Source of the DNA: a virus
Taxonomy: Duplodnaviria; Caudoviricetes
Reading direction: 5' to 3' (one strand)
Length of the DNA: 32,399 bases
IMG/VR virus record: IMGVR_UViG_3300044676_003071
Span: 1-32,399 of that record
Shown here: piece after piece, positions 6,553 through 28,630 of the stretch
How positions within the stretch are numbered: position 1 is the stretch's first letter
How the letters are laid out: every line of letters starts with the position of its first letter
Program-made: the position numbers and the translations under genes
Notes under the pieces: generated by a model
Database searches by the model: none
The model's input: only the letters and a program-made list of their open reading frames with translations
Told to the model about the DNA's origin: nothing

Positions 6553-6662
6553 AATCGGCCGATATCCGCTGAACTAGGCCGCGTTTGCGACTTGACACTG
6601 CGACGCTCCTTGCTGTACCCTTCTCTTACACGGGGACGGACCCCGGAGAGGAGAACAGCAAG
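6553..6662 (+). promoter_or_regulatory. Promoter P1 with upstream conserved motif, 5' hairpin and RBS
   Basis: AATCGGC 6553, TATCCGC 6563, GAACTAG 6571, TTGACA 6592-6597, 18-bp spacer, TACCCT 6616-6621, CGGGG/CCCCG hairpin 6631-6645, GAGAGGAG RBS; same layout at 24284 and 27914. Confidence 0.85.
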
Positions 6663-7025
6663 ATGGAGACCACGACCGACACGACGGAGCAGACGGTGAC
6701 GCTCTCCGTGCCGACGATGTTCTGGGCCGACCACTACCACCGCGCTTCGGATGACGGGCAGCCGGTGGGCACGCCGGTCAAGGAGGGTCCGAAGAAGACG
6801 ACGGTCGTCTTCGACACCGCCGACGCGCTGCACAACTTCATGCAAGACGCCGCCTACTACACGGACACATGGAAGGGTGGCGAGTGGCGGCGCGACGACG
6901 ACCCGTGGCTCTACTCGCTGGGCCGCTCCGCGAACACGACCAAGGAGTTCATCCGCAAGAACCGCCCCGACCTCTGCGAGGAGTTCAACGCATCACGCTG
7001 GGCCGGTCCGTACATCCGCTACTGA
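6663..7025 (+). CDS. Hypothetical protein (120 aa), moron gene 1
   Basis: ATG 6663 after a strong RBS; C-ending codon bias; no family recognised. Confidence 0.8.
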   Translation: METTTDTTEQTVTLSVPTMFWADHYHRASDDGQPVGTPVKEGPKKTTVVFDTADALHNFMQDAAYYTDTWKGGEWRRDDDPWLYSLGRSANTTKEFIRKNRPDLCEEFNASRWAGPYIRY

Positions 7026-7084
7026 GTCGAAACCCCTTCGGGGGTCAGCCGGACCTCGCCTACCGGCTCTGATGAGACAGGCGA
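7026..7084 (+). ncRNA. Type II hammerhead ribozyme with loop I/3'-tail pseudoknot; predicted cleavage after C7046
   Basis: GUC(7026-28)-GAAA-CCCC UUCG GGGG-UC^-AGCCGG[ACCUCGCCUA]CCGGCU-CUGAUGA-GAC(7076-78); UCGCCU 7056-61 pairs with AGGCGA 7079-84; all core nucleotides canonical. Confidence 0.92.
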
Positions 7085-7103
7085 ACGAGAGGAGACAGAA
7101 ACA

Positions 7104-7400
7104 ATGAAGGCCCACCGCATCGACAACCCGAATGTCGCCATCTCCCACGATGACCCGTGGGCATACCGGATTGCGCCCGGTCTTTATGTCCTAGGCCCGG
7201 TCGCCATCAGCCGCGAGTGCCACAACTTGTCGTGCGACTGCGACCGATACTGGGTGCGTCTGCGCCTAGACGACTATGCCGGTGGCGAACTTGGGGACAG
7301 CCTCGCTGAGTTTCAGACGCTGGACGTTGCGGCAGAGTTCGCATACGCACATCTTGCCATTCACGGCACGACCGAGCAGCGCGGCCTCTACGCGCGCTGA
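7104..7400 (+). CDS. Hypothetical protein (98 aa), moron gene 2
   Basis: GAGAGGAG RBS 7087-7094; contains CHNLSCDC; followed by a terminator. Confidence 0.75.
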   Translation: MKAHRIDNPNVAISHDDPWAYRIAPGLYVLGPVAISRECHNLSCDCDRYWVRLRLDDYAGGELGDSLAEFQTLDVAAEFAYAHLAIHGTTEQRGLYAR

Positions 7401-7413
7401 AGATTCCGGCTCC

Positions 7414-7449
7414 GACGGACCTCTGCTTCGGCAGGGGTTTCGTCTTTTT
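7414..7449 (+). terminator. Intrinsic terminator closing the moron
   Basis: GACGGACCTCTGC-TTCG-GCAGGGGTTTCGTC stem followed by TTTTT. Confidence 0.85.
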
Positions 7450-7546
7450 CATGAGGTAGCATTTCTTCACGCGCCCTACCCACGGGACCGGCACACCCTT
7501 CACGGGAAGCCTCACAATCCAATCCATTCCCACAGGGAGAATCCCA

Positions 7547-8737
7547 ATGTCTCTTGAGTTCATCAAGCGGCAGCAGGAGGAGCGTGCCCGTGCGTGGGAG
7601 GAGGCCAAGGGTCTCCTCGACACCGCCGCTGGCGAGAAGCGCGACCTGACTGCTGCTGAGCAGGAGAAGTACGACGCAATCAACCGTGACCTTGACGACC
7701 GTGCCGCTGTGATTGAGCGTGTGCGTGCGGACGAGGAGCGCGAGATGCGTGCCGCTGAGATGCGTCTGCCCGAGGCTCCGGCCCCGGTCGCGAAGAGCGA
7801 GACGGACGCTGACATCCTTCGTTCGATGGTTCGTGGTGAGCGTCGCTCGCACACGTTTGAGCAGCGCGCGCTGAACACCAGCGACGACTCCTCTGTCGTG
7901 CCCGAGTCGTTCTACTCGACCCTTCAGCAACTCCTCGTCTACGAAGGCCCGATGCTTCGTGGCGATGTCGTCACGCTGCTGAACACGACCTCCGGCGAGA
8001 CCATCAAGGTTCCGACGCAGGCTTCGCGTTCGGTCGCGACCGCGACTGCTGAGGGCGCTATCTTCGGTGAGTCGGAGCCGACGTTCTCGTCCTTCGACCT
8101 GAAGGCGCACAAGTACGGCGCTCTCGTGGCGGTCAGTCGCGAGATTATCGAAGATGCGGGACTCAGCGGTCCTGACCTCATCGGTTTCATCGCGGGCCAG
8201 TTCGCTACGGCGATTGGTACTGCGGTGAACGCTGTCCTCACCACGGGGACCGGCACGGTTCAGCCGAACGGTATTGCGAACGCTGCCGGTTCTGCCCTCA
8301 CGGGTGGCACGGGCGTTGCCGGTGCCTTCACCGCTACGAACCTCATCACCCTCGCCCACAGCGTCGACTCCGCGTATGCGAGCCGTCCGGGTGCCGGGTT
8401 CATGATGCGTCGTGCGACGCTCGGCTCTGTCCGCGCTCTTCAGGACGGGTCCGGGCAGTTCATCTACTCAGTTGGCGCGCCGGGTCTGCCCGACACGCTG
8501 CTGGGTTACCCGGTCATCGAGAACCCCTACGTCCCGGCTGTTGCGACGGGCGCGAAGAGCGTTCTCTTCGGTGACTTCAAGTCGTACCACGTCCGTCAGG
8601 TTCGTGGTATTGAGATTGCCCGTTCGGACGACTACGGCTTCGCCAATGACCTTATTTATTGGCGCGCTGCGGTCAGGCTTGACGGAAATCTTGGACAGTC
8701 TGAGGCTGTCAAGGCGTTCTACGGCGCTGCGTCGTAA
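7547..8737 (+). CDS. HK97-fold major capsid protein with N-terminal delta (scaffold) domain
   Basis: Coiled-coil N-terminus (RDLTAAEQEKYD), AHKYGALVAVSREII, GTGTVQPNGI, TLLGYPV, LFGDF, RLDG. Confidence 0.95.
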   Translation: MSLEFIKRQQEERARAWEEAKGLLDTAAGEKRDLTAAEQEKYDAINRDLDDRAAVIERVRADEEREMRAAEMRLPEAPAPVAKSETDADILRSMVRGERRSHTFEQRALNTSDDSSVVPESFYSTLQQLLVYEGPMLRGDVVTLLNTTSGETIKVPTQASRSVATATAEGAIFGESEPTFSSFDLKAHKYGALVAVSREIIEDAGLSGPDLIGFIAGQFATAIGTAVNAVLTTGTGTVQPNGIANAAGSALTGGTGVAGAFTATNLITLAHSVDSAYASRPGAGFMMRRATLGSVRALQDGSGQFIYSVGAPGLPDTLLGYPVIENPYVPAVATGAKSVLFGDFKSYHVRQVRGIEIARSDDYGFANDLIYWRAAVRLDGNLGQSEAVKAFYGAAS

Positions 8738-8750
8738 TCGCCTAACATCT

Positions 8751-8804
8751 CCGGGGGAGGCCACTAGCGCAGGGGTGGTCTCCCCCGGAACCCTGCGACC
8801 TGCG
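8751..8804 (+). other. Hairpin/H-type pseudoknot candidate after the capsid gene
   Basis: Stem 8751-8765/8774-8788; loop CGCAGG 8768-73 is complementary to CCTGCG at 8792-97 and 8799-8804. Confidence 0.6.
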
Positions 8805-8823
8805 ACGACAATCGAGCCTGCAC

Positions 8824-9981
8824 ATGAAGCCTGCGATTCATTGGTGGTCGAACTCTCCACACGCGCCGACCGGCTATGGCACTCAGACGAAGGCCGTCGC
8901 GCACCGGCTGGCGAACGCCGGGTTCCCCACGTCTATCGGCGCGAACTATGGCGCGGAGACGGTTGGGATTGACGACCGGACGAAGGCCGGGAAACCGTGT
9001 CCCATCTACCCACGCGGCTTCGACCCGTATTCGCAGGACACCATCGTCGCGCATTGGCGTGATTGGGCGCGAAAGCACAAGGACCGCCCCTGCCATCTTG
9101 CGACGCTCTACGACTCGTGGGTGCTGAAGAACCCGGAGTTGCTCACGCAGGATATGGGCCACATCTTCTCGTGGACACCGATTGACCACATTACGGTCCC
9201 GAAGGATGTTGCGGCATGGTGTGCGCGTCCGCAGGTGACAGCAGTTGCAATGTCCAAGCACGGGCAGGAGGCGCTTGCCAAGCGTGACATCGACTCCGTC
9301 TACATCCCTCACACGGTTGAGAAGGTGTTCGCGCCTACGGATGGCGGCGGCGCTGTGATGCAGGTGCCGGACGACCACTTCGTTGTGATGATGAACGCAG
9401 CGAACAAGGGGATTGCCCCAACCCGAAAAGCGTTCACGGAAAATCTGCTTGCGATGTCTGCGTTTATGAAGGCGCACGATGACGTTTCTCTTTATCTGCA
9501 CACGGAGCTCCACATGAGCGGCGGCATCAACTTGCCGGAACTCATCGAGCATTGCGGTCTGCCGAAGGAACGGATTCACGCGCCGAACGCATACGCCTAC
9601 CGGATGGGCGGTTACACGGACTCAGACCTTGCCGCGATGTATTCCCGTGCGGACGTTCTGCTTGCGGTGAGCATGGGCGAGGGTTTCGGCATCCCGACGA
9701 TTGAGGCGCAGGCGTGCGGCACTCGTGTTATCGGGTCGAACGCTGCGGCTACGCCGGAGTTGCTCGCCGATGATTGCTGGGCTGTCGAGGGGCAGCCGGA
9801 GTGGAATCCGATGCAGTCGGCGTTTTGGTTCCGTCCTCACATCCGTCCGATTGTGGATGCGCTGGAGGAGGCGTACAACGCGCCGCGCGGACCTTCGCAG
9901 CAGTGCATTGAGAAGGCGAAGGAGTATGCGGCAGAGACGGTCGTGAAGCGCGACTGGTTCCCGATGTTGGAGGCGGCATGA
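8824..9981 (+). CDS. Glycosyltransferase, GT4-like (GT-B fold)
   Basis: N-terminal SNSPHAPTGYG; EGFGIPTIEAQACG (E-x7-E) signature. Confidence 0.9.
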   Translation: MKPAIHWWSNSPHAPTGYGTQTKAVAHRLANAGFPTSIGANYGAETVGIDDRTKAGKPCPIYPRGFDPYSQDTIVAHWRDWARKHKDRPCHLATLYDSWVLKNPELLTQDMGHIFSWTPIDHITVPKDVAAWCARPQVTAVAMSKHGQEALAKRDIDSVYIPHTVEKVFAPTDGGGAVMQVPDDHFVVMMNAANKGIAPTRKAFTENLLAMSAFMKAHDDVSLYLHTELHMSGGINLPELIEHCGLPKERIHAPNAYAYRMGGYTDSDLAAMYSRADVLLAVSMGEGFGIPTIEAQACGTRVIGSNAAATPELLADDCWAVEGQPEWNPMQSAFWFRPHIRPIVDALEEAYNAPRGPSQQCIEKAKEYAAETVVKRDWFPMLEAA

Positions 9982-10871
9982 GACATCTTGTGACGGGTGG
10001 GCTGGGATTCATCGGGCAGCATCTTGTCGACCTGCTGCTCGTGCGCGGCGATGACGTGCTGATTGTTGACGACAACAGGGCCGGGAATCCGGTTCGTGAC
10101 GACTGCGAGGTGCTTCAAGACACGTTCGGGTCGTGGGACTACTACGAACAGTTCGCTGCCGTGTGGCATCTTGCCAGCCCGGTCGGGCCGGTCGGGGTTC
10201 TGAATCAGGCCGGTCGCATCACGGGTGAGGTGTTCCGGGGTGCGGAGAACGCCGCGATGCTTGCGATGCGCTCTGACGTGCCGCTCATTCATGTGTCGAC
10301 GAGCGAGGTGTATGGCGGTGGGGACCGTGGCTTGTGCGCTGAGGACATGGACTGCCGGGTGTCGACGAACCTGTCTGCGCGGCTGGAGTATCAGACGGCG
10401 AAGTTGGCGGTCGAGGTAATGCTTCAGAACACGGACGGGCTAGACGCGCGCATCATCCGTCCTTTCAATGTTTCGGGTGCAGGGCAGAAGCCGGAGGGCG
10501 GTTTCGTTCTGCCACGGTGGAAGCAGCAGTTGCAGACCGGGCAGGCGCTTACGGTCTACGCGCCGGGTACTCAGCGGCGTGCGATGACCCATGTCCATGA
10601 CATTGTCGAGGGGATGTATGCCGTATGGCAGATGGGTGAGCCGGGGCTGTGGAATCTCGGCAACCCGGACAACGTCATCTCCATGGTCGACCTTGCTGAC
10701 CTGTTCGTAGATGTTGCCGGGGGACGTTGGGAAATGGTTGACCCCATCGAGCTGCACGGCGCGAAGTTTGTCGAGGCGGCAGAGAAGTTCCCTGATGCGA
10801 CGAAGGCGATGTCGCTGGGTTGGAATCCGTCGCGTTCGCTGCGCGAGATTGTCGAGGACGTGCTGCTGTGA
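9978..10871 (+). CDS. NAD-dependent nucleotide-sugar epimerase/dehydratase (extended SDR, UDP-glucuronate decarboxylase-like)
   Basis: VTGGLGFIG, HLASPVG, STSEVYG, YQTAK (YxxxK), IRPFNV. Confidence 0.9.
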   Translation: MRHLVTGGLGFIGQHLVDLLLVRGDDVLIVDDNRAGNPVRDDCEVLQDTFGSWDYYEQFAAVWHLASPVGPVGVLNQAGRITGEVFRGAENAAMLAMRSDVPLIHVSTSEVYGGGDRGLCAEDMDCRVSTNLSARLEYQTAKLAVEVMLQNTDGLDARIIRPFNVSGAGQKPEGGFVLPRWKQQLQTGQALTVYAPGTQRRAMTHVHDIVEGMYAVWQMGEPGLWNLGNPDNVISMVDLADLFVDVAGGRWEMVDPIELHGAKFVEAAEKFPDATKAMSLGWNPSRSLREIVEDVLL

Positions 10872-11566
10872 TTCCGCTGCTTGGCGTTCCGGTCCTGAAC
10901 CGTGAGGACTTGGCAGCGCGCATGGTGCGGTCGGTCGACCATCCCGTGAACGAACTCCTTGTCGTGGTGAACGCTTCCGATAAGGAGAAGGTTGTCAGCA
11001 CGATTCGCGAGGCTGCGGACGACAATCCGGCTATTCGGAACACGACATTCTCGCTACCGTCTTTCAACCTTGGGTGTGGCGGTTCGTGGAATCACATCAT
11101 CCGTCATCGTCCGGTCGGCCCTTGGTGGTTGATTGTGAACGCCGACATCGAGTTTGCACCGGGCGACCTTGACCGGCTGACAGAGACGATGGTGCCGGAG
11201 CCGATGGTCGCGACCTTGTTTGAGTTTGGTGCGTTCGCGCCGAACGCGGCGGCGGTCGACCGGGTGGGCTGGTTCGACGAGAACCTGCACCCGATGTATT
11301 TTGAGGACAATGATTACAAGCGTCGGATGTCTATTGCAGGCGTCCCCTATCTTCGGGTTGACAGCCGGACGCGGCATGACAACAGCAGCACTATCGGGTC
11401 GGACGCGCGTCTTGCTCTGCGTAATCAGGAGACGTTCGGCCTGAACGCCGTCTACTATTTGGAGAAGTGGGGTGGGCCACCCGGCAGGGAGACCTTCACC
11501 GTCCCGTTCGATGACGGTGGGGAAATCCCGGTGTCGCGTGCTCGTCTCGCAAGTCAGGCGTGGTAG
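10868..11566 (+). CDS. Glycosyltransferase, GT2-like (GT-A fold)
   Basis: GTGA overlap; VPVLNR, NLGCGGSWN, IVNAD, GWFDENLHPMYFEDND. Confidence 0.85.
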   Translation: MIPLLGVPVLNREDLAARMVRSVDHPVNELLVVVNASDKEKVVSTIREAADDNPAIRNTTFSLPSFNLGCGGSWNHIIRHRPVGPWWLIVNADIEFAPGDLDRLTETMVPEPMVATLFEFGAFAPNAAAVDRVGWFDENLHPMYFEDNDYKRRMSIAGVPYLRVDSRTRHDNSSTIGSDARLALRNQETFGLNAVYYLEKWGGPPGRETFTVPFDDGGEIPVSRARLASQAW

Positions 11567-11597
11567 GCGTGTATCCTGACGTGATTGGAGGTCGCTA

Positions 11598-12191
11598 ATG
11601 GCAGACTACGCATCGCTTTCGGAACTGAAGACTGCGCTTCGGATTACCGATTCCGTGGATGACACGCCGCTTCAGGCGGTCCTCACGTCTGCGTCGCGGT
11701 TTGTCGACCAGTATTGCCAGCGTGACTTCACGGTCGCTTCGGGTACTGCGACCCGTGACTATGTGCCGACGGGCCGGTGGGAGTCGGTTGCGATTGACGA
11801 CGCGACGAGCATCGTCTCTGTCAAGATTGACGAAGACCTTGACCAGTCCTTCGGTGTCACGCTGAACTCCGTCGACTATCAGCCGGAGCCGGTCAACCGT
11901 CTCGTTTCGGACAATGACTGGGTCTACACGCGGCTCATTCCGATTGAGGACGGCTACTGGCCCACTTGGGAGGGCCGTGCGACCGTGCGTGTGGAGGCGA
12001 CGTTCGGCTGGCCTGCCGTGCCGGAGCCGGTCAAGACCGCGACGATTCTTCAGGCGGCACGCCTTTGGACCCGTTACGACTCTCCGCTTGGCGTCGCAGG
12101 CTTTGGCGAGATGGGTGCGATGCGCGTCTCTTTCAAGGCTGACCCGGACGTACAAATGCTCCTTCAGCCGTACCGTCGAGTGCACATCTGA
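11598..12191 (+). CDS. Head-tail connector/adaptor
   Basis: YASLSELKTALRI...ASRFVDQYCQR...GWPAVPEPVKTA...LLQPYR; GGAGG RBS. Confidence 0.85.
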   Translation: MADYASLSELKTALRITDSVDDTPLQAVLTSASRFVDQYCQRDFTVASGTATRDYVPTGRWESVAIDDATSIVSVKIDEDLDQSFGVTLNSVDYQPEPVNRLVSDNDWVYTRLIPIEDGYWPTWEGRATVRVEATFGWPAVPEPVKTATILQAARLWTRYDSPLGVAGFGEMGAMRVSFKADPDVQMLLQPYRRVHI

Positions 12192-12589
12192 TGGCATCTG
12201 TCGCCGCGATTCGCACCGCGCTTGCCACGTCGATGTCGTCCATCTCTGGGCTGCGAACGTCCGCGACCGTTCCTGACGCGCCCCGACCGCCGCAGGCCAT
12301 CGTCATGCCTGACCGCATCGACTACGACCTTGACATGGTGCGTGGCGCTGACCGCTTCTATTTCACGATTATTTTGCTGGTAGCTCGTGCGGACGACCGG
12401 GCTGCTCAGAACAATCTTGATGGATACATCACCGGCGCGTCGTCCATCAAATCCGCTATCGAGTCCGACCGGACTCTTGGCGGCGTAGTTGACACGGTGC
12501 GTGTGACGCAGATGCGTAACTACGCTGCCGTCTCTGTTGGTGAAGTTCTTTATCTTGGTGCAGAGTTCGACGTGGAGGTTGTGGCATGA
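12191..12589 (+). CDS. Tail terminator/completion-like protein
   Basis: Position between adaptor and tail tube; AIESDRTLGGVV motif. Confidence 0.65.
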   Translation: MASVAAIRTALATSMSSISGLRTSATVPDAPRPPQAIVMPDRIDYDLDMVRGADRFYFTIILLVARADDRAAQNNLDGYITGASSIKSAIESDRTLGGVVDTVRVTQMRNYAAVSVGEVLYLGAEFDVEVVA

Positions 12590-12783
12590 GTTGGACGGTT
12601 ACTTCGGGCCGTCTCCGGTGGGCTGAGGGCACTCGTCTTTCGGAGTCGGACCTTGCAGGGTGTAACATTGAGGCGCTGGTTCAGGGTGGTCATCTTGCTC
12701 CGGCATCGGACAACTATAAGAAGAGGCAGCCGGTTGCCCCGGTGCCGGACATGACGGCTGACGAGCCGAAGGAGCAGGACTAA
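12586..12783 (+). CDS. Hypothetical protein (65 aa)
   Basis: Coupled to both neighbours, GGAGG RBS; NIEALVQGGHL motif. Confidence 0.65.
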   Translation: MSWTVTSGRLRWAEGTRLSESDLAGCNIEALVQGGHLAPASDNYKKRQPVAPVPDMTADEPKEQD

Positions 12784-13190
12784 TGGCGCGCATCGTTCTT
12801 ACGAACGCTGGCGTGGTTCTTGGAGGCGTTGACCTTTCGGACCACGTCGCTCAGGTCGAGGTCAATCAGACTTTCGACGAGGTCGAGACCACCGCGTTTG
12901 GTGACGGGGGCCGTACCCGTGTCGCTGGGCTGGAGGACTCTTCCATCACCCTCTCTTTCCATCAGGACTTCGCTGCTGCCAGCGTGGACGCGACCATCGC
13001 GCCGCTCATCGGTGGGACTGCGTCGTTCGACATTTACCCGAACGGCACCAGCGTCGGCGCGACGAACCCGTCCTACTCCGGCACGGTCCTTCTTACGGAA
13101 TGGTCCGGCGTCGCTGGGAGTGTGGGTGACCTCCTCGTGGTAGACGTGACGTGGCCTGTGAGTGGTCAGGTGACGAGGGCGACCGCGTGA
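12783..13190 (+). CDS. Major tail tube protein
   Basis: VDLSDHV, VETTAFGD...VAGL, NPSYSG; upstream of chaperone and tape measure. Confidence 0.8.
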   Translation: MARIVLTNAGVVLGGVDLSDHVAQVEVNQTFDEVETTAFGDGGRTRVAGLEDSSITLSFHQDFAAASVDATIAPLIGGTASFDIYPNGTSVGATNPSYSGTVLLTEWSGVAGSVGDLLVVDVTWPVSGQVTRATA

Positions 13191-13471
13191 TTTCCCTCAA
13201 CCTGCGCGTCACTACCGACAAGTCAACAGACAACTACACGGTTGGGCCGAAGATTCAGGTCGCCTTTGAGCGTGAGTTCAAGGTCGGTCTGCCGAAGGCT
13301 TTCGCCGCAGACCAAAAGATGGAGCATCTCTACTGGTTGGCGTGGAAGTGCGCCTCTGAGAGTGCCAAGTCCGGCGGTCCTGCGGTGAAGCCCTTCGACG
13401 GCTGGTTGGACACGGTCGAGTCCGTCGAGGTCGTGGGGGTAGACGAAGACCCTTTGTCCCCAACGGGATGA
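13187..13471 (+). CDS. Tail assembly chaperone (gpG-like)
   Basis: GTGA overlap with the tail tube stop; slippery heptamer near the 3' end. Confidence 0.75.
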   Translation: MISLNLRVTTDKSTDNYTVGPKIQVAFEREFKVGLPKAFAADQKMEHLYWLAWKCASESAKSGGPAVKPFDGWLDTVESVEVVGVDEDPLSPTG

Positions 13472-14269: not shown

Positions 14270-14317
14270 TCGGCCTGTACCTTTGCTGATTATGTAGTCC
14301 GTCTGTAGGAGCGGCCC

Positions 14318-18351: not shown

Positions 18352-18362
18352 GGGAGGTTCCG

Positions 18363-19333: not shown

Positions 19334-19389
19334 CCGACTACACCGCGTCGTCTCTCCGATAACATTCGTTCGACAGTAAAGGAACCCTG

Positions 19390-20189: not shown

Positions 20190-20197
20190 GGTCAATC

Positions 20198-21695: not shown

Positions 21696-22306
21696 TGCGG
21701 ATTGTCTCGCGTGCTGAGTGGGGTGCGGTTCCGGCGCGGTCGACGACTCCGCTGAGACCGGAGCGCGTCAACCTTTTCGTGTTGCATCACACGACTGGGT
21801 CGTATCGTGGGCAGCGGTCGGTGCAGCAGATTCAGGCGTTTCATCAGGGGCCGGAACGGAAGTGGGCCGACATCGGTTACAACTTCCTTGTGGCCCCGGA
21901 CGGCACCGTCTACGAAGGCCGGGGGTGGGGGTTTGCTGGGGCGCACGCGCGCGGCAAGAACTCCGAATCCATCGGTGTCGCCTTCATCGGTGACGGGGCG
22001 AAGGAGATGCCTGCGGCTGCGAAGGCGGCGGTGCTGGAGTTGCTTCGTCAGGCTGAGGAGCGGTTCGGTGCGTTGCGGACGGTGGGTCATCGGGACGTTG
22101 GTAAGACGGCGTGCCCCGGCGATTCGATTTACGCTTGGTGGTCTTCAGATGCGCGCAGCGCTGTCAAGTTGCCTGCGAAGGTGACCACACCGGGGAAGGC
22201 CGAAGTCTCCGCAGAGCGCACTACAGCGCGTCGTAGCCCGGTGCCTGATTTGCGTGCCGGTTGGCGTGGGTTTATTGAGCGGTCGGGCTGGCGGCGTTCT
22301 CGCTGA
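21695..22306 (+). CDS. Endolysin, N-acetylmuramoyl-L-alanine amidase (Amidase_2/PGRP-like)
   Basis: IVSRAEWGA, LHHT, WADIGYNF, EGRGW..GAH, GHRD, TACPG. Confidence 0.93.
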   Translation: MRIVSRAEWGAVPARSTTPLRPERVNLFVLHHTTGSYRGQRSVQQIQAFHQGPERKWADIGYNFLVAPDGTVYEGRGWGFAGAHARGKNSESIGVAFIGDGAKEMPAAAKAAVLELLRQAEERFGALRTVGHRDVGKTACPGDSIYAWWSSDARSAVKLPAKVTTPGKAEVSAERTTARRSPVPDLRAGWRGFIERSGWRRSR

Positions 22307-22351
22307 TTGACACGCTATTTTCCACGCCGTCGTCAACACAAAGGACGAAGG

Positions 22352-22576
22352 GTGGAAGAGTTCCTCGCCGTGCAGAAGTCCAACCGTTCGCCGGGAATGT
22401 CAGGTTGGTGGGAGCAGGTCATCCCCGAACTTGACGGGGAGCAGCATCGGTCGCTGATGGAAGCGGCAGCGTCCGACCGCATCTCACACCGGACGATTGC
22501 TGTCGTGCTTGGCAAGTGGGGTCACGAAGTCTCGCCGCAGCAGGTGGGGCATTGGAGGCGCACCCATGTCCGCTGA
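22352..22576 (+). CDS. Small hypothetical protein, possible HTH
   Basis: ISHRTIAVVLGKWGHEVSPQQVGHWRR; overlaps the next start. Confidence 0.55.
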   Translation: MEEFLAVQKSNRSPGMSGWWEQVIPELDGEQHRSLMEAAASDRISHRTIAVVLGKWGHEVSPQQVGHWRRTHVR

Positions 22577-23756
22577 CGAGTTCCTGAAAGTGCAGCGCGA
22601 CATTGAAGATGCGAAGGTTCCGAAGCGCGCCCATCCGAAGGGCTGGGAACCCGGCCTCGACAGCGAGAAGGGTGTCGTCACCCACCTGAGCGGTTCGCCT
22701 ACGCCACCGTCATCGTGGGACGGCATCATCCACGAGTTGGGTCTCGACCCGAACGAGTTCACGGTCGACCCGTCGCAGAGCGTGCAGGTCCGCACTTGGG
22801 ACACGCCGGGTGCTGATGGCGGTCGGATGTATTACTACAAGGCGTCGGTCATCCCTGCGACAAGCGTCAGCACGCAGGATGTGGACGACCTCATCCGCGA
22901 GGTCAGGCGACGCAAGCCCAAGCCCCCGAAGGACATTCTCGCTGAGCGTGCGCTCGTGGCCTGTCTTGCTGACTGGCAGGCCGGGAAAGCAGATAGCGGC
23001 GGCGTGGAGGCGCTCGTCGAACGTCTGCTTGCGCTGAAGGACGCGATACCTGCGCGCATCCGCGAGGCGCAGAAGGTCGGCAAACCCATCTCGCATTTGT
23101 ATGTCGTCACGATGGGCGACCTCATTGAGAACTGTTCGGGCCACTACCCGATGCAGTCATTTTCCGTCGAGCTCGACCGGCGACAACAGGTGAAGTTGGT
23201 GCGTCGGATGCTGACGATGATGCTTATGGAGTGGTCGAAGTTGCCGGTCAAGATTGTGGTCGGCGCGGTGCCGGGGAATCACGGTGAAAATCGCAACGCA
23301 TCCGGGAAGGCCTATACCTCGTTTGAGGACAACGATGACCTAGCGGTCGTGGAACAGGTGCAGGAAATACTGGGCGCGAATGAGGAGGCTTTTGGGAACA
23401 TCTCGTGGGTGCTGCCGGATGGGGACATGACCATCACGCTTGACATCTGTGGTCAGGTGGTCGGGTTCTTGCATGGGCATCAGGCGCGTCGGGGTTCTAC
23501 GCCGCAGGCGAAGTTGCAGGGTTGGTGGCGTGGGAAGATGGCCTCGCAGCATCCGATTGGTGACGCTGAGATTTTGGTGTCTGCCCATTACCATCATCTG
23601 ACGGTCGTGGTTGACGGGCCACGGACGTGGATGCAATGTCCTGCGAATGATGGTGGGAGCCGGTGGTTCGTCGAGCAGGGTGGCGCGACGACCGCGTGCG
23701 GCACCCTGACGTTCGTGTGCGACAAGGACGGCTGGCATGGACTCCAAGTCCTCTGA
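22566..23756 (+). CDS. Calcineurin-like metallophosphoesterase
   Basis: ADWQ (DxH variant), GDLIE, GNHG, HGH, AHYHH in canonical order. Confidence 0.85.
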   Translation: MSADEFLKVQRDIEDAKVPKRAHPKGWEPGLDSEKGVVTHLSGSPTPPSSWDGIIHELGLDPNEFTVDPSQSVQVRTWDTPGADGGRMYYYKASVIPATSVSTQDVDDLIREVRRRKPKPPKDILAERALVACLADWQAGKADSGGVEALVERLLALKDAIPARIREAQKVGKPISHLYVVTMGDLIENCSGHYPMQSFSVELDRRQQVKLVRRMLTMMLMEWSKLPVKIVVGAVPGNHGENRNASGKAYTSFEDNDDLAVVEQVQEILGANEEAFGNISWVLPDGDMTITLDICGQVVGFLHGHQARRGSTPQAKLQGWWRGKMASQHPIGDAEILVSAHYHHLTVVVDGPRTWMQCPANDGGSRWFVEQGGATTACGTLTFVCDKDGWHGLQVL

Positions 23757-23874
23757 GAATGACGACAGCGACGAGCGTGACGTGCTGCTGCATCGTGAGA
23801 TGGACCGTCTGATTGAGATGTGGGATGACGAGCCTTCGCATGAGAAGTGTCATCGGGGTTCCCGGTGGAGATAG
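23737..23874 (+). CDS. Small acidic hypothetical protein (45 aa); absent from the ORF track
   Basis: MDSKSSENDDSDERDVLLHREMDRLIEMWDD...; fills the gap between neighbours. Confidence 0.45.
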   Translation: MDSKSSENDDSDERDVLLHREMDRLIEMWDDEPSHEKCHRGSRWR

Positions 23875-24158
23875 CACTCGGCCCGTATGTCATCCGGGTG
23901 TTGACTGACGAAGCGACGGACATCCGTCTCGCGGAGGATTCGGTCGACGGGGATTCGGATGTGCGTCGGGGCGTGATTCGTGTGAGGTCGGACCTTGACC
24001 ATGCACGGTTCCGTGAGGTGCTGCTGCATGAACTGCTGCATCACATTGTCGGGCTGACGCATCTGCAAACGCGGTGGTCGGATGAGGAGCAGGAGGAAGT
24101 GATTCGTGCGCTGTCGCCTTGGTTGGCGATGGTGGCGACGGTGGGTGTGTCGGACTAA
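23847..24158 (+). CDS. Small HExxH zinc metallopeptidase-like protein
   Basis: IRVRSDL...EVLLHELLH...EE; start uncertain. Confidence 0.7.
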   Translation: MSSGFPVEIALGPYVIRVLTDEATDIRLAEDSVDGDSDVRRGVIRVRSDLDHARFREVLLHELLHHIVGLTHLQTRWSDEEQEEVIRALSPWLAMVATVGVSD

Positions 24159-24165
24159 TACGAAA

Positions 24166-24204
24166 CGCTCGCCTGCCCCGGCGTTTCCGGGCTTATGGCG
24201 AGCG
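24166..24204 (+). terminator. Hairpin at the end of the late operon (possible terminator without a U-tract)
   Basis: CGCTCGCC 24166-73 / GGCGAGCG 24197-204 with an inner CCGG/CCGG stem. Confidence 0.4.
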
Positions 24205-24283
24205 CTCCGTAGTGGTAGTTCTGGCACCCCTGCCTGTCCCTGACCACGTCGGGCACGCTAGGCGTTTTGCGGCAGGTTTCGCA

Positions 24284-24402
24284 AATCGGCCCGATTCGGC
24301 CGAAATCGGCAGAACTAGTGCGGGTTTGGTGCTTGACAGGAGCGCGCCCTCTCCTGTACCCTACGCTTACACGGGGATAGCCCCCGGAGAGAGGAGAACA
24401 AG
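24284..24402 (+). promoter_or_regulatory. Promoter P2 with upstream conserved motif, 5' hairpin and RBS
   Basis: AATCGGC 24284, ATTCGGC 24294, AATCGGC 24304, GAACTAG 24312, TTGACA 24333-38, 18 bp, TACCCT 24357-62, CTTACACGGGGA..CCCCGGAGAG leader shared with P1. Confidence 0.85.
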
Positions 24403-24624
24403 ATGAGCACCGCGACCCCCACCGACATCGACTACCGCCGCGCAAACGGAACCCTCGATGAGGCTGCCGCGCAAATCCGAGAGGCGCACGAGACCCTTCT
24501 CGCCGCATGGCAGCTGGTCCGCGAACTCAACCACGGCGCATACAACGAGCACGAGCTGGCGCTGATGGAAGCGGCAAAGTTCGCCGCGCTCGCATACAAG
24601 GCGCTCCCGAAGAACCACATCTGA
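24403..24624 (+). CDS. Hypothetical protein (73 aa)
   Basis: First gene after P2, strong RBS. Confidence 0.8.
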   Translation: MSTATPTDIDYRRANGTLDEAAAQIREAHETLLAAWQLVRELNHGAYNEHELALMEAAKFAALAYKALPKNHI

Positions 24625-24684
24625 GTCGAAACCCCTTCGGGAATCCGGTGAGGACTGACCGCCCACCGCTGACGAGACAGGTCG
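24625..24684 (+). ncRNA. Type II hammerhead ribozyme, second copy with imperfect stem III; predicted site after C24645
   Basis: GUC-GAAA-CCCC UUCG GGAA-UC^-CGGUG[AGGACUGACCGCC]CACCG-CUGACGA-GAC; UGACC 24656-60 pairs with GGUCG 24680-84. Confidence 0.8.
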
Positions 24685-24699
24685 AGAGAGGAGCAGAAC

Positions 24700-24837
24700 A
24701 TGAGCAAGCGGACGGAAGAGGCGACCAGCACAAGCGAGGCGCGCGATGCGATGAGAATGGCGCTGGCCTCTTACATCGGATGGAAGGCGCTGATGGCAGA
24801 GGCAGAGCGCCTTGCGAAGCAGGAGGTGCAGGCATGA
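24700..24837 (+). CDS. Hypothetical protein (45 aa); absent from the ORF track
   Basis: GAGAGGAG RBS; MSKRTEEATSTSEARDAMRMALASYIGWKALMAEAERLAKQEVQA*; ATGA overlap with the next gene. Confidence 0.75.
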   Translation: MSKRTEEATSTSEARDAMRMALASYIGWKALMAEAERLAKQEVQA

Positions 24838-25070
24838 GAGGCGGCAAGGAGTACCGGCCCCGGCTCCTGATGGGCGGCGATGGTTCACACGTCCTAGTGA
24901 TTCGCGGCGAGAAGGTCGCACGTATCCGCGAGAGCGGTATCGGAAGGTTCACGCTCACCATGCAGGACGGGCGCGAGCTGGGCCGCTATCGCACCCGTAA
25001 AGCGGCGGTCGAAGCGCTCCTACCGATGCTCGCGCAACTTGACGCCGGGAGCAGACTTGACGTAGCTTGA
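24834..25070 (+). CDS. Hypothetical protein (78 aa)
   Basis: AGGAGG RBS; 3' part of track ORF 24507-25070. Confidence 0.7.
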   Translation: MRGGKEYRPRLLMGGDGSHVLVIRGEKVARIRESGIGRFTLTMQDGRELGRYRTRKAAVEALLPMLAQLDAGSRLDVA

Positions 25071-25107
25071 CGCCTTGGCAGCGCGTCCGAGACCGGGCTG
25101 CGCGCCA

Positions 25108-25171
25108 CCGGGGGTAGCGGTCCCCTCTCCTCTCGCCGCTACCCCCGGCCCAACTTCCGAGGAGAGAAGGA
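25108..25171 (+). promoter_or_regulatory. 13-bp hairpin whose loop is complementary to the downstream RBS region
   Basis: CCGGGGGTAGCGG 25108-20 / CCGCTACCCCCGG 25136-48; loop CTCTCCTC 25125-32 vs GAGGAGAG 25159-66. Confidence 0.65.
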
Positions 25172-25177
25172 AGAGCA

Positions 25178-25357
25178 ATGCGGAAGACCATTGAACGTGA
25201 GTTTGAGATTCGGTCAGGCGGCGAGCCGCTGGTCCCGTGGATGTTCCAGCAGCACAACGCCGGGTCGTCCCTGCGTGTCATCGCTGACCGTCTGACGGAG
25301 ATGACCGGAGTTCGGGTGTCGCACGAGTCGGTGCGGCAATGGATGAAGGCAGGCTGA
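25178..25357 (+). CDS. Small helix-turn-helix protein (59 aa); absent from the ORF track
   Basis: GSSLRVIADRLTEMTGVRVSHESVRQWM; TGATG coupling to the next gene. Confidence 0.75.
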   Translation: MRKTIEREFEIRSGGEPLVPWMFQQHNAGSSLRVIADRLTEMTGVRVSHESVRQWMKAG

Positions 25358-25521
25358 TGGAACTGGACACCCCGTCCCTGACGACGCTGGCGACACAGAT
25401 TGCGGACCTTCGTGCCAAGGCTGAGGGTCATGCGCGTGCGCTGTCACACCTCCATGCTGAACTACGACTGCTGGAGGAAGAGATGCTGAGGATGCAGGAA
25501 GTCCCCGAAGACTGGGAGTGA
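25357..25521 (+). CDS. Small coiled-coil hypothetical protein
   Basis: Coupled start; heptad pattern. Confidence 0.65.
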   Translation: MELDTPSLTTLATQIADLRAKAEGHARALSHLHAELRLLEEEMLRMQEVPEDWE

Positions 25522-25522
25522 G

Positions 25523-25768
25523 ATGAACGAGAACCTGCGCGCAATGTTCGACACGATGGACGAGACACGGGACGGCCTTCGGGCGCAGACGAACCGTGTC
25601 GAGCAAGTCCTGTTCGCTCTGTACGAAGAAGTCGAAGACCCATTGGGGGAGGGGGAGGAACTCGTCGGGATTCTGACGGATGCCGCCCATGACCTGCACG
25701 CGCTCGCTGGCGTCGTCGCGATGCTGTCGGCGCAACTGACCGACATCGGCAAGGAGATTCTGCGATGA
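25523..25768 (+). CDS. Hypothetical acidic helical protein
   Basis: GGAG RBS; ATGA overlap with the exonuclease. Confidence 0.7.
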   Translation: MNENLRAMFDTMDETRDGLRAQTNRVEQVLFALYEEVEDPLGEGEELVGILTDAAHDLHALAGVVAMLSAQLTDIGKEILR

Positions 25769-26481
25769 CAACCCCTGCGCTCGCTGAGAACGTCAAAGGA
25801 AAGGGCAGGCACTACAAGCACCCGGTCACGGGCGAACTGCTACCAAGCATCACGAACGTGCTGGGCGCTGCGGTGAACAAGCCAGCGTTGCCTCGCTGGG
25901 CTGCCAAGGTCGTCGCTGAGCAGGCCGTCGCGATGCGCGACTCGCTCTCGAATCTTGACGAAGAGGAGGCCATCACGATTCTGAAGCAGTCGCCTTGGCG
26001 CTCGTCGACTAGGGCTGCCGACCGTGGCACAACCATCCACGCCTATCTCGAAGCAATGATGCAGGGGCTGGAGCCGCAGGAGATTTCCGGCGACGCCGCC
26101 CGGTACAGGAAGGCCGCTGACGCATGGTTGGCAGACTGGCAGCCTAAGCCTGTCGCTGTAGAACTCACCGTGTTCGGTGACGGGTATGCCGGGACTGGCG
26201 ACCTTTGGTGCATCACGAACGACGGCAAACTTGTCGTACTCGATTACAAGACGAGCAAGGCCGTCTACCCGGAAGCAGCTCTACAACTTGCCGCGCTTGC
26301 GCGTGCCACGCTCGACCCGGATGGGAACGAGCCGCCGCTTGCGGAAGAGGCATGGGTCATTCGCATCGGAGAGAAGGGCTACGAAGCAAAGCGTGTCGCG
26401 AACATCGAAGCGAACTATCAGGCGTTCCGTGCCTGCCTTCAGGTGTGGCATTGGGTCAATGGAGAGGATGTGTACGCATGA
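25765..26481 (+). CDS. PD-(D/E)XK exonuclease (RecB/Cas4-like phage recombination nuclease)
   Basis: PSITNVL...KPALPRWAA, RGTTIH, E..V, GYAGTGD, LDYKTS, LQLAA. Confidence 0.88.
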   Translation: MTTPALAENVKGKGRHYKHPVTGELLPSITNVLGAAVNKPALPRWAAKVVAEQAVAMRDSLSNLDEEEAITILKQSPWRSSTRAADRGTTIHAYLEAMMQGLEPQEISGDAARYRKAADAWLADWQPKPVAVELTVFGDGYAGTGDLWCITNDGKLVVLDYKTSKAVYPEAALQLAALARATLDPDGNEPPLAEEAWVIRIGEKGYEAKRVANIEANYQAFRACLQVWHWVNGEDVYA

Positions 26482-26894
26482 GTCAACTGCATGAACTGTC
26501 AAGGCCGTTCCCTGAGTCGCTGGTCAAGCAGAAGCCGGGGAAGTTCGCGGCAGCGTTCGTGTCCCACGCGGACGTTTGTCAGCGGGTCCTTGAAGTGCTT
26601 GGCCCGTACTCGTTTGAGGTCAAGCAGATGATTACGAACCCGGACGGGATGGTGACGGGCTGCCTCGCAACGCTGACCTGCACCGTCGACGGCAAAGAGG
26701 TTCGCATCACGGAGGTCGGGGATGTCGAACGTCCGGGCGAGTCGAACGGCTCAGCCGGAAAGACGGCGTCTTCCGACGCGCTGAAGCGCTGCGCCATGAG
26801 GCTGGGCGTTGGGCTGCACCTGTGGAGTCAGGATTCGTACTACTTGGACCGTGCGCTGGAGAAGAGGAAGAAGGATGGAGACGACGACGAGTGA
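26478..26894 (+). CDS. Rad52/Sak-like single-strand annealing protein
   Basis: FVSHADVCQRVLEVLG...KTASSDALKRCAMRLGVGLHLW; adjacent to the exonuclease. Confidence 0.8.
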   Translation: MSQLHELSRPFPESLVKQKPGKFAAAFVSHADVCQRVLEVLGPYSFEVKQMITNPDGMVTGCLATLTCTVDGKEVRITEVGDVERPGESNGSAGKTASSDALKRCAMRLGVGLHLWSQDSYYLDRALEKRKKDGDDDE

Positions 26895-27365: not shown

Positions 27366-27645
27366 CCCTTACCGGACCGGGCACGTCTCTGAGTGTCTTC
27401 GGTGCGGTGTTGAGGACATAGTTCCCCTTGCCATCTGTCGGTTCGAGCGTCACCCGTGGCGGCTGGTGTGGAACTGCCTGTCCTGTGCCGAGCAAACGTC
27501 AGCGCTCGTACACCCGGAGGTAATTCCGTTTCTTCTGCGCCATGACGTTGCCGGTGGCCTTGTCGTTTCTGCTCGCGAGGCCGCTTTTTGGGAGCGTGCG
27601 GATGCAGACGACGTGACGGAGGCGTTCGTCGAGGAGCTTCTGTGA
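27346..27645 (+). CDS. Zinc-finger protein
   Basis: GGAGG RBS then TTG 27346; CLRC and CLSC pairs. Confidence 0.6.
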   Translation: MSGPRLDPYRTGHVSECLRCGVEDIVPLAICRFERHPWRLVWNCLSCAEQTSALVHPEVIPFLLRHDVAGGLVVSAREAAFWERADADDVTEAFVEELL

Positions 27646-27914
27646 GGCAGGTGTCGCGTCGGCGTGCGAAGCGCGACCGCGTCTACGATGAGCGTCGGCG
27701 TGAGGTATGGGAGCGCGGCGGCGGCGTCTGTGAGTGGTGCCACGCTGCCGAGATGACGGACGTGCATCATCGGGCCGGTCGCGTTGGTCGCGACCCTCAC
27801 CGACTGGAGAACCTTGTCGGCCTCTGCTGGGGCTGCCATCAGCGTGTTCATGGGCATCCTGAGTGGGCGCGGTCTGTGGGGCTGATGGAGACCCGAATCG
27901 TAAAGTCGGGCTGA
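27642..27914 (+). CDS. HNH endonuclease
   Basis: CEWC...DVHH...NLVGLCWGCH. Confidence 0.85.
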   Translation: MRQVSRRRAKRDRVYDERRREVWERGGGVCEWCHAAEMTDVHHRAGRVGRDPHRLENLVGLCWGCHQRVHGHPEWARSVGLMETRIVKSG

Positions 27915-28008
27915 ATCCGCAGATATCCGCAGAACTAGGTGGGGTTTGGTGCTTGACAGACGCTCGGCGTGTCCGGTAGTTTTACGCCAGTCGAGAGGAG
28001 ACAGACAG
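27914..28008 (+). promoter_or_regulatory. Promoter P3 with upstream conserved motif and RBS
   Basis: AATCCGC 27914, TATCCGC 27924, GAACTAG 27932, TTGACA 27953-58, 18 bp, TAGTTT 27977-82, GAGAGGAG RBS. Confidence 0.85.
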
Positions 28009-28182
28009 ATGAAGACCACCAAGGTCCGCTTCACCGCCACCATCGAGATTGACATCGAGGAGTGGGCAGAGGCCTACGGCCTTGAGCCGACCGCTCGCGC
28101 CGTTCAGCAGGATGTTCGCGAGGCGGTGTTCAACCACATTCACAACATGGCGGTCGCTCCTCTTGGGGTTACCGCACGCTGA
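28009..28182 (+). CDS. Hypothetical protein (57 aa)
   Basis: First gene after P3; MKTTKVRFTATIEIDIEEWAEAYG. Confidence 0.8.
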   Translation: MKTTKVRFTATIEIDIEEWAEAYGLEPTARAVQQDVREAVFNHIHNMAVAPLGVTAR

Positions 28183-28194
28183 CCACAGACGACT

Positions 28195-28226
28195 TGGGGG
28201 CGCGTTCGGGGAAGGGCGCGCCCCCA
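28195..28226 (+). other. 13-bp GC-rich intergenic hairpin
   Basis: TGGGGGCGCGTTC 28195-207 / GGGCGCGCCCCCA 28214-226. Confidence 0.65.
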
Positions 28227-28247
28227 CCAACCTGAGAGGAGCAGCAC

Positions 28248-28409
28248 ATGACCACCACCATCAAGCAGGTCAGCCACTACGAGGTCGTTGGCGACCGTGG
28301 CGTCGCGTTCATCGCGCACCGCCCGGAGGATGCGATTGACCTGCGCGACCAGAACGGCATGGCAATCGCCCGCATCGTCTTCACCGACCGCACGACAAAG
28401 ACCATCTGA
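28248..28409 (+). CDS. Hypothetical protein (53 aa); absent from the ORF track
   Basis: GAGAGGAG RBS; MTTTIKQVSHYEVVGDRGVAFIAHRPEDAIDLRDQNGMAIARIVFTDRTTKTI*. Confidence 0.75.
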   Translation: MTTTIKQVSHYEVVGDRGVAFIAHRPEDAIDLRDQNGMAIARIVFTDRTTKTI

Positions 28410-28435
28410 CCTACCGGCCTGAGAGGAGACAGACC

Positions 28436-28630
28436 ATGAGCACCAAGACCCACACCTTCAACGAGATGTTCGGCATCGTCACCTACGAAGTTCCGTTCGG
28501 CTGCGAGTGCTGCGGCACCAAGGTCGACACCTACTACCAACTGCGCGGCGACCGCCATGGGGCGCACTCCTGCGGCGACTGTGCTGAGCAGCACGTCGAG
28601 GAAGTCAACGCCGGGATTTGGGAGTGGTGA
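28436..28630 (+). CDS. Small zinc-finger protein
   Basis: GAGAGGAG RBS; CECC and CGDC. Confidence 0.75.
   Translation: MSTKTHTFNEMFGIVTYEVPFGCECCGTKVDTYYQLRGDRHGAHSCGDCAEQHVEEVNAGIWEW

Follow-up and report, generated by a model that had tools for sequence, protein, structure and literature searches.

Accessory-gene slots with a common promoter and an optional, apparently mobile ribozyme linker in an uncultured actinophage

Introduction

Pseudoknotted type II hammerhead ribozymes have been described flanking inconstant genes of prophages, whose transcripts were found to be cleaved (Perreault et al., 2011; PMC3088659), and the role of self-cleaving ribozymes between phage genes has been stated to be an open question (PMC6765202). 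Here we analyse IMG/VR record IMGVR_UViG_3300044676_003071 over its whole length (G000; 32,399 bases, linear, 95% complete according to CheckV; hereafter the window), the near-complete genome of an uncultured, lytic-looking actinobacterial siphophage in which three slots of small genes share one promoter, and in two of which a type II hammerhead lies between the stop codon of one gene and the ribosome-binding site (RBS) of the next. The original prediction saw in these loci a repeated promoter-gene-ribozyme-gene cassette, a candidate self-processing expression system. The explanation that we consider best, with a probability of about 0.62, is that they are hypervariable accessory-gene slots with an optional mobile ribozyme linker.

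The arrangement itself had precedents, since hammerheads that flank variable prophage genes and cleave were already reported by Perreault et al. (2011; PMC3088659), and processing of polycistronic transcripts into parts of different stability is a published suggestion (PMC6765202). With the prophage clusters of Rfam family RF02276 the window shares the type II topology, the pseudoknot between loop I and the 3' tail and the position between small inconstant phage genes, for which cutting into single-gene messages has been proposed; it differs from them in having one ribozyme per cassette, placed inside promoter-terminator units, and in having one of these in the head module (PMC3088659). Fusion to a stop codon, a shared RBS and the exchange of near-identical copies between loci go unmentioned in the parts of that report cited here (PMC3088659).

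Three other systems are close in different ways. PeSLs, the promoter/stem-loop repeats of T4-like phages, serve ORFans as points of recombination (Arbiol et al., 2010, PMC2839356; Comeau et al., 2014, PMC4122927); as described there, they too consist of a repeated host-sigma promoter and Shine-Dalgarno (SD) sequence before ORFans, bounded by an upstream stop, with insertions, deletions and replacements between relatives at the repeats, some of them inside virion modules. The window has the repeated promoter and SD before ORFans and shows replacement at the repeats, but no terminator stem-loop lies inside its promoter; it also differs from the described PeSLs in holding 3 copies in 32 kb against about 50, in having a catalytic RNA as a second repeat and in being an actinobacterial siphophage. 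A further feature of PeSLs is the formation of mini-circles when repeats recombine; the material compared here consisted of assembled contigs. Like the morons of HK97-like phages (Cumby et al., 2012; PMC3594210), slot 1 is inserted between conserved morphogenesis genes, has its own promoter and terminator and is absent from some relatives; unlike the morons described there, it shows no GC contrast (0.63-0.65 against 0.62-0.63 in the flanks), and its cargo is replaced, not only added. Expression from a prophage, another moron feature, is doubtful because no tyrosine or serine integrase was found in the 95% complete record. The start-associated sequences (SAS) of Cluster K mycobacteriophages (Pope et al., 2011; PMC3203893) are likewise a repeated extended SD motif a few bases before the ATG of non-structural genes, whereas the motif of the window has another sequence (GAGAGGAG), occurs in 7 such copies without visible 17-bp inverted repeats, and is associated with ribozyme linkers as well as with an antisense hairpin loop. 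The cassettes thus work like PeSL or moron units yet lack one defining feature of each. The parts are individually known; the one twist that our comparison supports would be a ribozyme-RBS linker that is mobile and exchangeable, and such a junction in phage slots was not found in the open-access literature as searched by titles and the openings of abstracts.

A common promoter and ribosome-binding site

The promoter copies form the top repeat family of the window (D1; 6542-6617, 24283-24358 and 27903-27978, 67-76% identical to the reference copy), with the consensus GAACTAG-N5-GTTTG-N3-C-TTGACA-N18-TANNNT. The pattern TTGAC[AG]-N18-TANNNT is matched exactly four times in the window, each time on the + strand (6592, 24333, 27953 and 25039), the last of which lacks the upstream GAACTAG-N5-GTTTG element and had been overlooked when the three copies were first counted. 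TTGACA-TANNNT is the housekeeping promoter type of Actinobacteria, and the copies are predicted to be early-type promoters used by the host polymerase; a sigma-70 scan did not report these sites because their -10 boxes match TATAAT at 3 of 6 positions only. The motif GAGAGGAG has 9 matches in the window where 1.46 ± 1.27 are expected (0 of 100 shuffles reached 9), and 7 of these are on the + strand, each 6-9 nt 5' of a cassette ATG, so the proposal of three loci with a common promoter and common ribosome sites is borne out. A short leader hairpin follows the -10 box in 2 of the 3 promoter copies, and the only terminator-like + strand site at the promoters is a weak one of 5 pairs (27959-27973). 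The elements of the slots, all on the + strand, are as follows.

6553..6621, +: promoter 1, with GAACTAG at 6571-6577 and GTTTG, -35 TTGACA at 6592-6597, an 18-nt spacer and -10 TACCCT at 6616-6621
6631-6653, +: slot-1 leader, with a hairpin at 6631-6645 (fold z -3.2) and the GAGAGGAG RBS at 6646-6653
6663..7025, +: slot-1 gene 1, 120 aa, no PHROG or Pfam match
7023..7084, +: type II hammerhead HH1 including the stop codon (ribozyme 7026-7084), identified by Rfam RF02276 at 37.7 bits and by pair counts
7087-7400, +: RBS (7087-7094) and slot-1 gene 2 (7104-7400), 98 aa, no PHROG or Pfam family
7414..7449, +: terminator-like hairpin closing slot 1, the best terminator-like site of 1-16500 (z -2.3)
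7457..7546, +: leader of the major capsid gene, outside the cassette, with a TANNNT box at 7457-7462
24284..24396, +: promoter 2 region, with -35 at 24333-24338, -10 at 24357-24362, leader hairpin and RBS at 24389-24396
24403..24624, +: slot-2 gene 1, 73 aa, no family
24622..24684, +: type II hammerhead HH2 with a damaged stem III, including the stop codon (ribozyme 24625-24684), 56/60 identical to an intact copy in locus L021
24686-25070, +: RBS (24686-24693), slot-2 gene 2 (24700-24837, 45 aa) and gene 3 (24834-25070, 78 aa)
27914..28000, +: promoter 3 region, with -35 at 27953-27958, -10 at 27977-27982 and RBS at 27993-28000, without a leader hairpin
28009-28630, +: slot-3 genes 1-3 (28009-28182, 28248-28409 and 28436-28630), with two further RBS copies and no ribozyme

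By sequence, slot 1 has its own promoter and terminator; for slots 2 and 3 no clear terminator is seen in the window. Capsid expression is not necessarily blocked by the slot-1 terminator: the TANNNT box, a putative promoter, and the conserved capsid leader lie behind it, and this leader stands directly after the protease stop in relatives whose slot 1 is empty (L003 and L004). As had been claimed, the cassette genes are mutually unrelated, with no blastp pair at E ≤ 0.01 among those of the window. Neither they nor 8 genes of relatives matched a PHROG or Pfam family above the cut-off, apart from slot-3 gene 1, which matched a PHROG of unknown function; Atlas gave no usable match for slot-1 gene 1, and its leads for gene 2 were all under 0.9. 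Position and size prompt no more than a guess that the cargo acts in host takeover or counter-defence.

Slots 1 to 3 in related phages

Relatives were found by way of the capsid protein, the promoter pattern and the upstream exonuclease, and a search with the exonuclease at 25765 as query returned none. They are metagenomic fragments of 1-23 kb, among which L200 and L227 duplicate L021, L202 duplicates L001 and L203 duplicates L197; the promoter pattern had 12 metagenome matches, two of which (L199 and L205, AT-rich and without a protein match) were excluded as chance.

The promoter 1 motif recurs at slot 1, between protease and capsid genes, in L001, L195, L197 and L204, and together with the window these five distinct phages hold five unrelated cargo sets behind it: one 93-aa gene in L001, genes of 61 and 73 aa separated by a hairpin spacer in L195, a 141-aa gene in L197, and genes of 65 and 163 aa in L204. 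The terminator is kept behind different genes in L001 and L197. Of 20 capsid loci, 15 include both flanks; in L003 and L004 (60-62% capsid identity) the slot is empty, with a gap of 132 nt, and 12 others have gaps of 180-844 nt without the promoter pattern. Slot 2, after a metalloprotease-like gene, holds five different gene strings (window, L021, L198, L196 and L206), with the promoter 2 motif recurring in all four relatives, and is empty in L211. Its first gene is replaced by unrelated genes in L021 and L198, in L196 and in L206: a 122-aa gene followed by an intact HH2-type ribozyme in L021; the identical 122-aa gene, two HH1-type ribozymes with a 57-aa gene between them, and a homologue of window gene 24834 in L198; another gene with an HH1-type ribozyme in L196; and four genes with no ribozyme in L206. 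At slot 3, after the HNH gene, L201 has the promoter 3 motif leading straight to a homologue of window gene 28436, and slot-3 genes 1 and 2 of the window are absent there.

Genes also change slot. Slot-1 gene 1, which has four other homologues at 70-84% identity, has a 33% homologue in L228, which stands at slot 3 after a related promoter and a different RBS motif, and slot-3 gene 2 has a 33% homologue (E 3.4e-6) between the two hammerheads at slot 2 of L198. The slot-1 leader has an identical copy at slot 3 of L201. Shuffling of the slots by recombination is therefore likely.

The comparison with relatives, which the original prediction had proposed to make with a covariance model, bore out variable genes behind the same promoter; a constant ribozyme architecture was not found, since 5 of 12 distinct cassettes with the shared promoter carry a ribozyme and 7 do not. 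Among 49 loci of the group, the model search found ribozymes in L021 (and its duplicate L227), L196, L198 and L226 only, the last with tandem promoter-gene-terminator units, its own RBS motif and a ribozyme flush with TGA; among the loci compared, slot 1 has a ribozyme in the window alone. One obligatory cassette of promoter, gene, ribozyme and gene is hence not supported. The unit is a promoter, one or more variable genes and a terminator or the next promoter, much as in morons and PeSLs; the ribozyme is optional and slots may be empty.

The third locus of the window has a plain hairpin spacer without a ribozyme (28195-28226, z -3.1). It is part of a second type of linker, 68 nt long (window 28180-28247 and L195 1447-1514), with a GC hairpin, a GGGGAA loop and a common tail into the RBS; the stems differ in sequence yet pair, and the L195 copy occupies the place that HH1 has in the window. 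L228 has a similar loop behind a small gene. In viral_contigs, additional copies of this linker were not found, 0 of 10 pattern matches being related. The spacer 28407-28435, in front of gene 28436, is similar to the 3' half of HH1 and could be a ribozyme that has eroded, at a weak model score (9 bits, E 0.99); the gene before it is the one whose homologue lies between two ribozymes in L198.

One canonical and one degenerate hammerhead

Both hammerheads begin directly after a TGA (7023-7025 and 24622-24624, each followed by GTC) and end just before an RBS, as had been noticed, and the cut position at 7047 in HH1 was correctly placed, between C7046 and A7047. The two ribozymes are not equivalent.

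HH1 consists of stem II (7026-7028 with 7076-7078), GAAA (7029-7032), stem III (7033-7044), stem I (7047-7052 with 7063-7068), CUGAUGA (7069-7075) and a pseudoknot (7056-7061 with 7079-7084). It matches Rfam Hammerhead_II over 7025-7086 (37.7 bits against a gathering score of 37, E 2.4e-4), and the hammerheads of the relatives score 35.8-37.8 bits. The cores read CUGAUGA/GAAA/GUC in HH1 and CUGACGA/GAAA/AUC in HH2, and both have the nucleotides that a type II core requires (C3UGANGA9, G12AAA, U16.1 and H17). In both, loops close stems I and III and stem II is open, and loop I forms a pseudoknot with the 3' tail, of 6 pairs in HH1 and 5 in HH2, against the at least 4 expected of type II. HH1 is a genuine, canonical pseudoknotted type II hammerhead and a member of RF02276; related ribozymes cleave in vitro and in Escherichia coli (PMC3088659), and HH1 very likely cleaves as well.

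HH2, whose cut would fall between C24645 and C24646, gave no Rfam match at E ≤ 5. Its stem III reads CCCC-UUCG-GGAA, so that C15.2 and C15.3 face A (A24642 and A24643 opposite C24633 and C24632), where HH1 pairs CCCC with GGGG, including 15.2-16.2 and 15.3-16.3 next to the core; the pair probability at the two positions is 0.00 in HH2 and 0.67 in HH1. Its copy in L021 differs at 4 of 60 positions, 2 of which are these mismatches, as read from this one record. Because the two C-A mismatches adjoin the core and the same pairs are intact in the homologue, HH2 is a degenerate homologue that is probably impaired.

When the 6 close copies are placed on the type II fold with its pseudoknot, 96.7% of cells are paired, stems I and II are paired throughout, and the only stem breaks are those two of HH2. 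Both sides have changed in five pairs, three of stem I and two of the pseudoknot, although the 6 copies amount to two variants and this covariation reflects few events. In 38 more distant loci, 88 model matches (87 distinct) have 99.8% of cells paired in an alignment that was fitted to the model and leans towards it; both of the pairs broken in HH2 are formed in 87/87, and 15.2-16.2 is C-G in every one. A model built from the 6 copies, including both of the window, found no third ribozyme there with filters off. The slot-1 terminator, read on the minus strand, has the likeness of half a hammerhead but no CUGANGA partner and was rejected.

Near-identical linkers in different slots

Linker and surroundings differ in how well they are kept. 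HH1 is identical to the copies of L196 and L198 at 57-58 of 59 positions, against 71-72% for the neighbouring homologous DNA and 72-80% for the promoters; HH2 and its L021 copy share 56 of 60 positions, against 65-66% in the upstream exonuclease gene. The HH1-type linker stands at slot 1 in the window and at slot 2 in L196 and L198, where, in L198, it directly precedes a homologue (59%) of window gene 24834, gene 3 of slot 2. These comparisons suggest that ribozyme and RBS are mobile and move as a unit. In L021 and L198, moreover, the identical 122-aa gene is followed by different ribozyme variants whose first 26-27 bases are nearly identical and which diverge right after the cut site, the pattern expected from a crossover inside the ribozyme. 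The linker may well be used as a crossover point, a claim to which we lean by a small degree. The idea of homology anchors in the original prediction has thereby gained its best new support, with different cargo behind the same promoter and near-identical ribozyme linkers at different slots, the crossover at the linker being the part suggested by the pattern of divergence. No close variant of the ribozyme was found in genome_contigs.

How general the stop-ribozyme-RBS layout is

A ribozyme pattern that contains TGA has matches in 49 viral loci of 39-69% GC; as it was selected for TGA and is hence unfit for counting stop adjacency, a TGA-free pattern was used for that purpose, which has matches in at least 123 viral loci. 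The survey covered 80 of these at least 123 loci and gave 79 distinct matches, 73 of which could be parsed into stems, with 6 excluded as unparsed. In it, an open reading frame (ORF) ends within -3 to +5 nt of stem II in 50 of 73 hammerheads (1.9% at random anchors), and an SD and ATG follow 10-35 nt downstream in 58 of 73 (7.2% in the control), so stop-ribozyme-RBS stands as a conserved design. The direct junction of TGA to GTC, in contrast, is no fixed feature: 4 of 5 ribozymes of the relatives read TGA-CA-GTC, and among the 73 the commonest form is a TAG overlapping the first G (24), with a flush stop in 9 and TGA joined to GTC in 2.

The shared promoter pattern has matches in 2 viral loci only, against 49 and at least 123 for the ribozyme. 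The layout is therefore a property of the ribozyme subfamily, independent of this promoter, and a fixed tie between the two, as had been proposed, is not supported. Unrelated phages (L037, L045, L066, L041 and L050) also have 4-10 type II hammerheads arrayed within about 6 kb, most of these ribozymes being missed by the strict pattern.

Explanations for the slots and their linker

A slot, as we picture it, would have an early-type promoter for the host polymerase with a leader and a strong RBS, hold between one and four small genes, and be closed by a terminator or by the next promoter. Genes would enter and leave by homologous recombination between short common sequences (promoter and leader, intergenic linker, RBS), plausibly by means of the phage's Rad52-family annealing protein. 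One kind of intergenic linker would be a type II hammerhead that is fused with the stop codon upstream and with the RBS downstream of it. At the intact HH1 the transcript is most likely cut 21 nt past the stop codon, at a site 57 nt short of the next ATG, which would leave the 3' end of gene 1 behind a 4-bp UUCG hairpin and give gene 2 a 5'-hydroxyl (5'-OH) end with stem I and the pseudoknot before its RBS (the pseudoknot ending 2 nt before it), so that the two messages could be translated and turned over separately.

Several points weigh against this reading. Ribozymes are missing from most of the 12 cassettes, although their absence from L195 and L206 holds only as far as those contigs reach, and the assignment of L196 to slot 2 rests on common upstream sequence only. 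The near-identity of the linkers could stem from strong purifying selection or from a recent passenger transfer of the linker, and 59 bp is short for recombination. In the survey of stops and RBSs, ORFs were called by a simple heuristic and the pattern was restricted to GTCGAAACCC. Minimum-energy folds of the whole region were no better than shuffles for either ribozyme (z 0.54 and 0.98) and did not contain the active fold, for which the pseudoknot is needed; of the 18 consensus hammerheads tested in 2011, 4 did not cleave (PMC3088659). Finally, with HH2 decayed and no ribozyme in 7 of 12 cassettes, any benefit of cutting is small or conditional.

An alternative, the form given in the original prediction, is a dedicated self-processing system in which cutting stabilises both messages, gene 1 between hairpins and gene 2 behind its 5'-OH. 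Hairpins do flank gene 1 and follow the cut, and the distances to stop and RBS are conserved; yet the ribozyme is optional (present in 5 of 12 cassettes) and interchangeable with a plain hairpin or a spacer of 16-42 nt, HH2 is damaged, and the 3' hairpin of gene 1 has just 4 bp plus UUCG. RNA with a 5'-OH is a poor substrate for the 5'-monophosphate-stimulated decay by RNase E, and to that extent the protection assumed in the original prediction agrees with general knowledge. For RNase J the premise is weak: RNase J1 degrades the 5'-OH product of the glmS ribozyme in Bacillus, and in Bacillus subtilis 5'-OH ends are trimmed so as to become monophosphate ends (PMC11780869). For bacterial ribozymes a differential stability has been proposed (PMC6765202), but we regard a net stabilisation of the cut products as doubtful and the dedicated system as a whole as somewhat less probable still. 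Cutting might instead be coupled to translation, occurring only when translation is low, destabilising or uncoupling the message and helping to shut early genes off. From usual ribosome footprints, a ribosome terminating on gene 1 would cover the 5' strand of stem II, GAAA and the start of stem III, and one initiating on gene 2 would reach the 3' strand of the pseudoknot, which in HH1 ends 2 nt 5' of the RBS; stops cluster at -1 and 0 in 33 of the 73 surveyed cases. The conserved A-G before GTC, however, makes TAG, TAA or TGA easy to embed, compact genomes favour overlap, and relatives shift the stop by 2 nt without visible cost, so this coupling appears unlikely, a little more so than the dedicated system.

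A linker that is nearly neutral or selfish, spread among cassettes by gene conversion with its cutting tolerated and not selected there, would fit its optional presence, its near-identical copies at different slots, the decay of HH2 and the possible eroded remnant at 28407-28435, weak as its score is. Core, stems and pseudoknot are, however, conserved with compensatory change across phages of 39-69% GC, which implies selection for activity in the ribozyme family as a whole, and a mere passenger is accordingly an improbable account. Least probable by far is that pairs of ribozymes cut out RNAs of single genes, which are then circularised by ligation or reverse-transcribed and so carry genes about. 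The 57-aa gene of L198 lies between two ribozymes that would give it 5'-OH and cyclic-phosphate ends, and many-copy arrays exist in other phages, but cassettes of the window hold one ribozyme each, no reverse transcriptase was found among its 56 proteins scanned, and circles or spliced products were not detected in the 2011 work as reported in the parts cited here (PMC3088659). Accessory-gene slots with an optional mobile linker thus remain the preferred reading.

A fourth promoter-like site and an antisense hairpin

The end of slot 2 is marked by a further element on the + strand.

25039-25068, +: fourth promoter-like site
25108-25148, +: leader hairpin, the most stable tested (z -6.65)

The hairpin precedes a weak HTH-like gene (25178-25357), and its 13-nt loop is antisense to the cassette RBS, being complementary to GAGAGGAGA. 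When 40 gene starts are compared, pairing of the loop is strongest with the RBS of its own gene (-17.8 kcal/mol), followed by the 7 cassette RBSs together with one further gene (-15.8 to -14.1 kcal/mol); several coding stretches pair with it more strongly than gene starts do. L198 keeps the loop with changes in the stem, and the element also occurs in L211 with its empty slot 2. C/U-rich loops are found at this position in L211, L214 and L228, one loop of L228 matching that phage's own cassette RBS motif. The hairpin may occlude its RBS in cis or repress in trans. No further copy was found in viral_contigs.

Hairpins with C/U-rich, anti-Shine-Dalgarno-like loops also occur on the minus strand after the HNH gene in L213 and L216, where the region is inverted. 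Before slot 2 lies a conserved non-coding motif, CACCCCTGC...CCTGACCAC, with an upstream hairpin (window 24170-24260, L021 and L211-L216). An 80-nt element of L021 (2739-2818) and L206 (2738-2817) matches both ends of tmRNA without the message part (RF00023, 60.2 bits in both), as a tRNA-like domain alone after the metalloprotease-like gene; it is also found, cut, in L198, and something similar is seen in L211-L215. It is absent from the window and was not called by ARAGORN, which found no tRNA or tmRNA in the window and 11 loci.

Phage and genome context

The window encodes terminase, portal, maturation protease, major head protein, tail and tape-measure genes and an amidase, together with exonucleases, a Rad52-family annealing protein, HNH, a RusA-like resolvase, a replication initiator and WhiB, which we take to indicate an actinobacterial host. 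Two neighbouring genes are candidate machinery for cassette exchange.

25765..26481, +: exonuclease, PF12705 above the cut-off
26478..26894, +: Rad52-family single-strand annealing protein, PF04098 above the cut-off, with a match to an Erf-like PHROG

The pair (25765..26894) may be linked to the cassettes, and Rad52-like phage recombinases are reported to recombine short and diverged homologies (PMC3945230). Contigs from 4 DNA runs over 6200-25500 showed no clear cassette swap; a joint from 24690 to 25056 was seen in one contig with 46 letters on its short side, too weak for use.

Directly 3' of the major head gene, at 8824-11566, lie genes for a glycosyltransferase, a nucleotide-sugar epimerase-like and a galactosyltransferase-like protein, a possible capsid glycosylation module, the first of which is kept at that place in nearly all relatives. 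Two 40-nt direct repeats, 64 nt apart within the replication initiator gene (31231-31334), are possibly origin iterons. An Rfam match to mir-986 in the window (E 4.1) was dismissed as chance.

Significance

A more far-reaching, speculative and improbable possibility is that the slots form an integrase-free system of gene capture, in which the linker as DNA would be the crossover point for swapping small ORFs between slots and phages and as RNA would supply the stop context, a processing site and the GAGAGGAG RBS, and in which the hairpin RNA of the fourth promoter, with its loop antisense to that RBS, would turn down all captured genes together. Whatever the linker does, this group of phages is a natural comparison set: for the same promoter and slot there are cases with an intact and with a damaged ribozyme, with a plain hairpin and with none of these, and one identical gene is followed by either ribozyme variant, which makes explanations by RNA processing and by recombination anchors separable. 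If the linker is a crossover point, the high variability of ribozyme-flanked genes would be explained.

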